A DNA stretch of 64,000 nucleotides, from NCBI RefSeq assembly GCF_058153355.1, contig NZ_CM177019.1; one strand, given 5' to 3'. Of the stretch, positions 29,782 to 29,980 are shown one piece after another (position 1 is the stretch's first letter; every line of letters begins with the position of its first letter). The notes under the pieces were generated by a model that did no database searches, was not told the origin of the DNA, and was given only the letters and a program-made list of their open reading frames with translations. The position numbers and the translations under genes are program-made.

Positions 29782-29824
29782 TCGTCCTAACCTGATTAAC
29801 TGAGACTGACGGCAACGCCAAATT

Positions 29825-29927
29825 GCCTGATGCGCTGCGCTTATCAGGCCTACAAGGTGAATTGCAATTTATTGAATTTGCACATTTTTGTAGGCCGGAT
29901 AAGGCGTTTACGCCGCATCCGGCAACA
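29825..29927. repeat. Two REP (repetitive extragenic palindromic) elements in the fliC 3' region
   Basis: gcctgatgcgctgcgcttatcaggcctaca and tgtaggccggataaggcgtttacgccgcatccggca are canonical REP sequences. Confidence 0.8.
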
Positions 29928-29955
29928 TGAATGGTAATTTGTCAGCAACGTGCTT

Positions 29956-29980
29956 CCCCGCCACCGGCGGGGTTTTTTCT
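29956..29980 (+). terminator. Rho-independent terminator after fliC
   Basis: ccccgccaccggcgggg hairpin followed by a T run. Confidence 0.8.

Follow-up and report, generated by a model that had tools for sequence, protein, structure and literature searches.

The fliC locus and its 3′ untranslated region

The window, by which we mean the whole 64-kb stretch of DNA that was analysed, carries the genes fliD (minus strand), fliC (plus strand), fliA (plus strand), fliZ and tcyJ, in this order. The fliC product was recognised by the NCBIfam model for FliC/FljB family flagellins (654 bits against a cut-off of 619), and a spacer of 319 nt separates the gene from fliA, which starts with a GTG codon at 30101. 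Upstream of fliC we found a sigma-28-type promoter-like site with two mismatches to the pattern TAAAGTTT-N11-GCCGATAA; four sites of this quality occur in the window, against 0.53 expected. This site is a putative promoter that would drive the precursor transcript spanning fliC and its 3′ untranslated region (UTR). The main features of the gene and its UTR are as follows:

28197–28223, plus strand: sigma-28-type promoter-like site TAAAGGTT-N11-GACGATAA, upstream of fliC
28300–29781, plus strand: fliC coding sequence (ATG at 28300, TAA at 29779–29781), a flagellin of 493 aa; its mRNA is the parent of the small RNA FliX
29825–29853, plus strand: REP 1, z-type, palindrome GCCTGATGCG..CTTATCAGGCCTAC, in inverted orientation and ending in CTAC
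29890–29923, plus strand: REP 2, y-type, palindrome GTAGGCCGGATAAGGCG..CGCATCCGGC, starting with GTAG; the 5′ hairpin of the short form FliX-S
29956–29978, plus strand: intrinsic terminator with the stem CCCCGCCACCGGCGGGG at 29956–29972 (seven G-C pairs, ACC loop), followed by TTTTTT at 29973–29978

The preliminary description of this DNA, made from its letters alone, had placed two REP palindromes and then a strong terminator behind the fliC stop codon, and we found both where it had put them. Specifically, a search for the REP core (GATGCG N3-18 TTATCMGGCC) returned exactly two matches in the 64-kb window, with none expected by chance, and both lie in the fliC–fliA spacer on opposite strands (29829–29850 on the plus strand and 29893–29919 on the minus strand). 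The gap in this pattern was kept variable because the loop length differs between the two REP types, for which reason a fixed-gap version gave no match. The two REPs are therefore real and inverted, but they are not independent of each other, since they form the two halves of a single larger repeat, which is treated below. Ribosome stalling induced by REPs has been reported for REPs that lie within about 15 nt of a stop codon. REP 1 begins 44 nt past the fliC stop codon, and this effect was ruled out here.

The small RNA FliX

We conclude, with a probability of roughly 0.9, that positions 29785–29978 are the source strain's allele of FliX, a small RNA (sRNA) that stems from fliC's 3′ UTR. FliX is already known and annotated in K-12, and the preliminary description, which had proposed a 3′-UTR-derived regulatory RNA ending at about 29980, was thus correct in substance without being new: the RNA it predicted is annotated in RefSeq and has been tested experimentally in K-12. 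The same holds for the discrete RNA species that it suggested looking for by northern blotting and in Hfq data. According to Melamed et al. (2023, eLife, PMC10578931), K-12 FliX is detected as discrete bands of about 200 nt and about 100 nt that co-immunoprecipitate with Hfq, and the shorter form, FliX-S, contains one REP sequence. The main worth of the finding is accordingly the correct annotation of a characterised regulator in the window, with the following landmarks:

29785–29978, plus strand: homologue of full-length FliX with a length of 194 nt and about 96% identity to MG1655 fliX (b4827)
29785, plus strand: FliX 5′ end, where primer SM044 begins TTGTAACC... and the window reads TCCTAACC...
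29874–29978, plus strand: FliX-S homologue, 105 nt; its 5′ end, within an AU-rich linker, corresponds to primer SM673 (GAATTTGCAC) and to the FliX-S gBlock
29941–29955, plus strand: FliX seed region GUCAGCAACGUGCUU, identical to K-12, with the M1 triplet GCA at 29945–29947

In the RefSeq annotation of MG1655, the ncRNA gene fliX (b4827) occupies 2001912..2002106, starting 3 nt past the fliC stop codon and ending in the T-tract of the terminator, and the same coordinates were given by Bar et al. (2021). The homologue in the window likewise begins 3 nt past the fliC stop codon, has the same orientation as fliC and extends to the fliC terminator, whose seven G-C pairs and T6 run supply the 3′ stem-loop and U-tail of FliX. 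Aligned over 195 nt, the two alleles differ by seven substitutions and by one T fewer in the tail of the window allele, without any rearrangement. Two of the substitutions fall at the 5′ end, one in the linker between the REPs and four just 5′ of the seed (29928–29935). The shorter tail, with six U residues against seven in K-12, is shared by 8 of 10 sampled alleles. The seed itself (GUCA-GCA-ACG, including the M1 triplet) is present in the window, and the oligonucleotides for the M1 mutant (SM644 and the FliX-S-M1 gBlock), which change GCA to CGT within TTTGTCAGCAACG, map to 29945–29947. Position, seed, the context of the FliX-S 5′ end and the terminator stem are therefore the same as in K-12, and a further difference, besides the substitutions and the tail, lies in the flagellin upstream, which is a 498-aa protein of the H48 type in K-12 and one of 493 aa in the window.

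We compared 10 long-form alleles that stand behind flagellins of different lengths and found that TTTGTCAGCAA is invariant and the terminator stem essentially so, while the 3′ part of the seed (CGTGCTT) and the stretch at 29928–29935 vary. Rfam 15 holds no FliX family, and its matches at this site are cross-hits to REP and BIME sequence.

FliX function in K-12 and a proposed pathway

In K-12, the expression of FliX depends on sigma-28, and the RNA is lost in a fliA deletion (Melamed et al., 2023, PMC10578931). In that study, FliX is depleted by a 5′-phosphate-dependent exonuclease, evidence that it arises by processing of the fliC mRNA, and RIL-seq recovers it in chimeras with the coding regions of fliC and of several S10-operon genes. 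When overexpressed, FliX lowers fliC mRNA, flagellin and the number of flagella, and represses gfp reporters of rplC, rpsS-rplV and rpsQ (PMC10578931). The M1 change of three nucleotides in the seed abolishes the footprint of FliX-S on rpsS, and a compensatory mutation in rpsS restores binding, while the same change introduced into the chromosome (fliX-M1) raises flagella and fliC mRNA late in growth with motility unchanged and a mild phenotype overall (PMC10578931). Given the 96% identity and the conservation of all mapped landmarks, we infer that the allele in the window would behave in the same way.

We propose the following course of events for the window allele. Transcription of fliC would start at its sigma-28 promoter, as demonstrated in K-12, and would terminate at the hairpin and U-tail at 29956–29978. 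The fliC mRNA would then be cut just past the stop codon to yield the form of about 194 nt, and a second cut near 29874, in the AU-rich linker, would yield FliX-S of about 105 nt; processing to both forms is established for K-12, and the second cut might be the work of an endonuclease with a preference for single-stranded AU-rich RNA. Protection of the resulting fragments is probably due to the REP hairpins and the terminator. The terminator forms the FliX 3′ end, and its U6 tail is likely the Hfq-binding tail, Hfq association as such having been demonstrated in K-12. Finally, GUCAGCAACGUG, which lies between the y-type REP and the terminator, would pair inside the coding sequences of fliC, rplC, rpsS and rpsQ, and this pairing would lower the levels of fliC and of the S10 operon and reduce the number of flagella late in growth; for K-12, seed pairing with rpsS in vitro, repression of fliC and of S10-operon reporters, and fewer flagella on overexpression are established.

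To place the seed within the RNA structure, we folded both forms computationally. The full-length RNA (29785–29978) has a predicted free energy of −70.3 kcal/mol (z = −3.7) and FliX-S (29874–29978) one of −46.6 kcal/mol (z = −5.0), and in neither case was any of 200 shuffled sequences as stable. In the full-length prediction the two REPs pair with each other, CUGACGG of the outer arm on the left pairs with UUGUCAG, and the first five bases of the seed are nearly always paired (unpaired probability at most 0.07). In the prediction for FliX-S, the y-type REP forms a hairpin of its own, and the seed is part of another, weak one of 4 bp. Predicted folds and seed accessibility are alike for the window and K-12 alleles. 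The better access to the seed predicted for FliX-S would agree with the stronger phenotypes of FliX-S reported in PMC10578931.

We also scanned the seed for duplex formation with the 5′ end of fliC, in the window and in K-12, and with the S10 operon of MG1655, and found it to perform no better than shuffled seeds. The best energies were −16 to −18 kcal/mol, and those of shuffled seeds averaged −16.7 kcal/mol with a best value of −21.1 kcal/mol. Since the seed does not surpass its shuffled versions, the sequence by itself does not confirm the targets, and the published ones are neither supported nor refuted by these scans.

The FliX seed core within a BIME-1 element

The two REPs and the sequence between them constitute one BIME-1: a z-type inverted REP, a linker of 36 nt and a y-type REP, arranged head to head. 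BIME-1 elements are defined by a z1 and a y REP, present as a single copy at a locus and separated by a long conserved L linker that often contains a site for IHF (Ton-Hoang et al., PMC3333891). In agreement with this definition, we found inverse z1 and y REPs in a single copy, a conserved L linker, and a dispersed, multi-copy intergenic element; the shortness of the palindrome and the presence of an L linker point to z1 rather than z2. The element extends beyond the REPs as follows:

29801–29953, plus strand: extended BIME-1, comprising a left arm (29801–29824), the z1 inverted REP, the L linker, the y REP and a right arm (29924–29953)
29854–29889, plus strand: BIME-1 L linker, 36 nt, matched by the Rfam model ES036; its AU-rich centre holds the 5′ end of FliX-S
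29865–29877, minus strand: site resembling the IHF consensus, ATTCAATAAATTG, predicted from its 12/13 match to WATCARNNNNTTR

The extent of the element was taken from an alignment of the fliC element with its BIME-1 counterparts at nine further sites, namely the 3′ ends of eight genes and the rnr–rlmB spacer. The resulting consensus consists of a left arm, TGAGACTGATGACAAA.G.AAAATTGCC, the z1 inverted REP, the L linker, the y REP and a right arm, ATGAACAAAGCGCACTTTGTCAGCAATCTGA, and about 13 nt at one end recur, imperfectly and inverted, at the other. The outer arms probably correspond to the extra-PU motifs 'A' and 'B' of Gilson and Bachellier.

We found that the core of the FliX seed, UUUGUCAGCAA, and with it the M1 triplet, is this BIME-1's right terminal arm. 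Of FliX, no more than the first 16 nt, two T residues and the terminator lie outside the extended element. Like other BIME-1 elements, which are also called RIP or RIB elements, the fliC element has inverted REPs, a long linker and many copies per genome; it differs in being transcribed, in K-12, within an Hfq-binding sRNA and in having a right outer arm that serves as seed. The main text of Melamed et al. (PMC10578931) does not mention an origin of the seed in BIME-1, and FliX is not in the list of the RepRanger paper, which uses a very loose definition of REPs.

The nearest precedent for this arrangement is GlnZ, an sRNA from the 3′ UTR of glnA in E. coli K-12 (bioRxiv 10.1101/2022.04.01.486790). 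GlnZ resembles FliX in its length of about 200 nt, its Hfq-type character and its processing from an mRNA, and also in that an inserted REP forms a long stem and that some strains and species have the insertion and others do not. In GlnZ, however, the REP separates the seed from the terminator without including the seed, which is conserved whether the insertion is there or not, whereas the seed core of FliX lies within the repeat and is absent wherever the element is absent. FliX would exemplify a mobile repeat that supplies a working part of an sRNA, the REP in GlnZ being an insert beside the seed only.

Other BIME-1 copies and FliX-like layouts

The repeat is abundant in E. coli. A megablast search with the fliC–fliA region matched a median of 29 places per E. 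coli genome, the L-linker consensus a median of 28 places (counts listed up to 40), and the 35-nt consensus of the right arm a median of 21, with 36–37 matches in K-12-like strains. In E. coli B, the match in the artJ 3′ UTR does not end with the two REPs but takes in flanking sequence of the FliX element as well, TTTGTCAGCAA among it.

We then scanned metagenomes for a y-type REP followed, after 6–26 nt, by TTTGTCAGCAA, which gave at least 120 loci in at least 22 clusters. Among the matches listed, the 22 clusters comprised one at fliC, one of the fliC type on a contig too short to be grouped with the first, 11 with a BIME-1 elsewhere and nine chance matches without a BIME. The 11 other BIME-1 contexts among these matches, whose gene names were read from the ends of the flanking open reading frames and not from a database search, were artJ, pfkA, an amino-acid permease, tadA, uup, pgm, a dehydratase, acnB and uvrB in non-K-12 sequences, one unidentified gene and the rnr–rlmB spacer. 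The uvrB copy has UUUGUCUUCAA, and no BIME-1 is found at the acnB site in K-12. These metagenome copies were selected through the seed pattern itself; the independent checks on the right arm are the counts per genome given above and three loci chosen by the linker alone (obgE–dacB, rhlE–ybiA and IS621–yfiE), all three of which carry it, with the core variants GTCAATAA, GTCAGCAA and GTCGACAA. A scan of the viral_contigs set with the L-linker pattern gave no matches.

Two of these sites share the layout of FliX closely. In MG1655, the 3′ UTRs of pfkA and artJ run from the stop codon through a leader of 25–40 nt, a BIME-1 and an unaltered UUUGUCAGCAA to a terminator and its U-tail, and they measure about 200 nt. 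They differ from FliX in their parent genes and terminators and in that the core is followed by AUAUGAGG or UCUGAAG rather than CGUGCUU. A literature search for sRNAs from the pfkA or artJ 3′ UTR returned nothing. On the basis of this layout, we suggest the pfkA and artJ 3′ UTRs of K-12 as candidate FliX-like RNAs. On this reading, a mobile BIME-1 of about 153 bp that lands next to a terminator brings a ready-made sRNA module, in which the hairpins and a single-stranded UUUGUCAGCAA come from the element and the terminator and U-tail from the host gene. Whether at least one other BIME-1-containing 3′ UTR acts as an Hfq-dependent regulator through the shared right arm is a more tentative matter, and we consider this possible but rather doubtful. 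If it were true, 3′ UTRs of the same layout (in K-12 those of pfkA and artJ; with variant arms those of obgE, rhlE, pgm and others) would yield FliX-like RNAs with a common seed core, which could co-regulate the targets of FliX or compete for them. Moreover, if the seed is the arm of a multi-copy repeat, interaction data such as RIL-seq, and the targets ascribed to FliX, have to be re-examined with the other copies in mind.

At several of these sites we also observed signs of how the element may have arrived. At artJ, pgm, the acnB-like site and rhlE, a terminator-like hairpin of the upstream gene stands on both sides of the BIME-1; at pgm, for instance, AAGGAGCC...GGCTCCTTTTTTATTGG occurs both before and after it. 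This looks like a duplication of the terminator as a target site upon insertion, and it is not seen at fliC. The BIME-1 at IS621–yfiE in strain JB2 is without the z1 REP and the left arm and has an annotated IS621 transposase gene directly upstream; it was probably truncated by an IS insertion.

Long and short fliC UTRs among strains

The long UTR of the FliX type is common in E. coli and varies in its presence: 3502 of 5426 complete genomes hold at least 80% of window positions 29760–30110, and among the matches listed the remaining chromosomal ones start no earlier than the terminator stem. An 85-nt query that covers seed and terminator showed both to be present in 3316 genomes. We sampled seven genomes with the short form, in which 18–20 nt lead from the fliC stop codon to the same terminator, the fliC–fliA spacer measures 163–164 nt, and neither a BIME-1 nor a FliX seed is present at the fliC locus. 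These seven fall into three types, the first represented by EC6622, 97-3250, PSS-08-2 and 2018-10-1CC, the second by DA33137 and the third by strains ST-131 and S12, which have a flagellin of 350 aa. The EC6622-type short form alone is found in 863 genomes. As about 35% of complete E. coli genomes are without the element at fliC, it is dispensable.

The spacer of the ST-131 type, TGGCCTTAACCTGCCTGA, resembles the 5′ leader of FliX, TCGTCCTAACCTGATTAAC, in the way expected of an unoccupied site. One and the same FliA protein (WP_001087467.1) adjoins both the long and the short forms, which places the boundary between them at the terminator, and the terminator at 29956–29978 is kept in both. We infer from this arrangement that the UTR would travel with the fliC allele, so that FliX, on this reading, is an accessory regulator tied to the fliC (H-antigen) cassette. 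If so, short-UTR strains would lack the feedback of FliX on flagella and on ribosomal-protein mRNAs; and if a third of strains lack the element, the circuit that connects flagella and ribosomal proteins in K-12 would be strain-specific and travel with the H-antigen gene. The text of the FliX paper (PMC10578931) does not mention variation between long and short UTRs. The origin of the seed in a repeat, the look-alike UTRs of pfkA and artJ, and the lack of a long UTR in about 35% of genomes have, in our estimation, a modest chance of being both new and useful.

Beyond E. coli, an exact search of the GTDB species representatives for a 19-mer across the junction of seed and terminator matched only an E. 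coli-like contig binned as 'Collinsella'. The 3′ part of this 19-mer varies among E. coli alleles, so the scan is too strict and says little about other species. The contig (JAIJJM010000281.1, 'MAG: Collinsella sp.', 3.9 kb) contains an E. coli-type fliC 3′ end, FliX and the upstream region of fliA, and it is almost certainly a mis-binned Escherichia contig.

A further observation concerns the flanks of the UTR. The end of fliC, CTGCAGGGTTAATCG (29770–29787), is nearly reverse-complementary to CGATTAAAAACCCTGCAG (30028–30053), which belongs to the fliA promoter region, and CGATTAAAAACCCTGCAG in turn pairs with GCAGGGCTGTTTATCG (30086–30101), which overlaps the fliA start codon. The fliC copy, CTGCAGGGTTAATCG, is missing from EC6622-type alleles, and the complementarity between fliC and fliA may thus be due to chance.

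Alternative roles of the UTR

One alternative is that the UTR is a passive module for termination and 3′-end protection, in which the REPs and the terminator block 3′–5′ exonucleases and stabilise the fliC mRNA, and the short RNAs are intermediates of decay that regulate nothing. REPs have been reported to stabilise mRNAs and to act in termination (PMC3333891), and the very stable folds predicted for 29785–29978 and 29874–29978, the absence of the element from about a third of strains and the equivalent placement of BIME-1 in many unrelated 3′ UTRs are all in keeping with such a role, as is the mild phenotype of chromosomal fliX-M1 described in PMC10578931. A passive module does not, however, account for the Hfq enrichment and RIL-seq chimeras of FliX in K-12, for the loss of the rpsS footprint in M1 and its restoration by a compensatory change in rpsS, or for the opposite phenotypes of overexpression and seed mutation (PMC10578931). 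We therefore consider it improbable that passive protection is the whole explanation.

A second alternative places the function at the level of DNA: the BIME-1 would bind IHF, and possibly gyrase, and insulate the heavily transcribed fliC from the fliA promoter about 100 bp downstream. The element does stand between two transcription units on the same strand, its L linker matches the IHF consensus at 12 of 13 positions, and the L linkers of BIME-1 elements often hold IHF sites and REPs bind gyrase (PMC3333891; PMC2817692). Yet the IHF site at 29865–29877 is a prediction from sequence, short-UTR strains keep the same terminator and fliA promoter without a BIME, and insulation would leave the RNA-level evidence for FliX unexplained, which makes this alternative, taken by itself, very improbable. 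Passive and DNA-level roles may coexist with that of an sRNA, but neither explains the RNA evidence from K-12.

The remaining alternative, a separate sRNA of the Rfam ES036 (CssrF) or naRNA4 (CssrE) type, partly on the minus strand, is extremely improbable, given that the region-limited matches behind it (ES036, RF02751, 37.6 bits and thus equal to the cut-off, minus strand, 29846–29887; naRNA4, RF02564, 41.9 bits, 29893–29943) come from a model that matches the BIME-1 linker and gave no hit in the whole-window run at the gathering score and from one that stays below its cut-off of 59.5 bits and aligns to the y-REP hairpin only, and that the minus strand of 29782–29980 showed no promoter-like site. 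Both identities were rejected, as both models recognise BIME-1/REP repeat sequence.

Other RNA genes in the window

Besides FliX, the window contains MotR, another sigma-28-dependent sRNA, with its RNA at 53805–53899 on the plus strand and its promoter, TAAACTTT-N11-GCCGATAT, at 53772–53798. Compared with K-12, MotR has two substitutions in or next to its published seed, which reads GGUGUGGCGAAAC in the window and GGUGAGGCGCAAC in K-12. Rfam models matched at their gathering scores identify DsrA (2783–2869, plus strand), C0465 (58291–58368, minus strand) and three tRNAs (39772–40070, plus strand).
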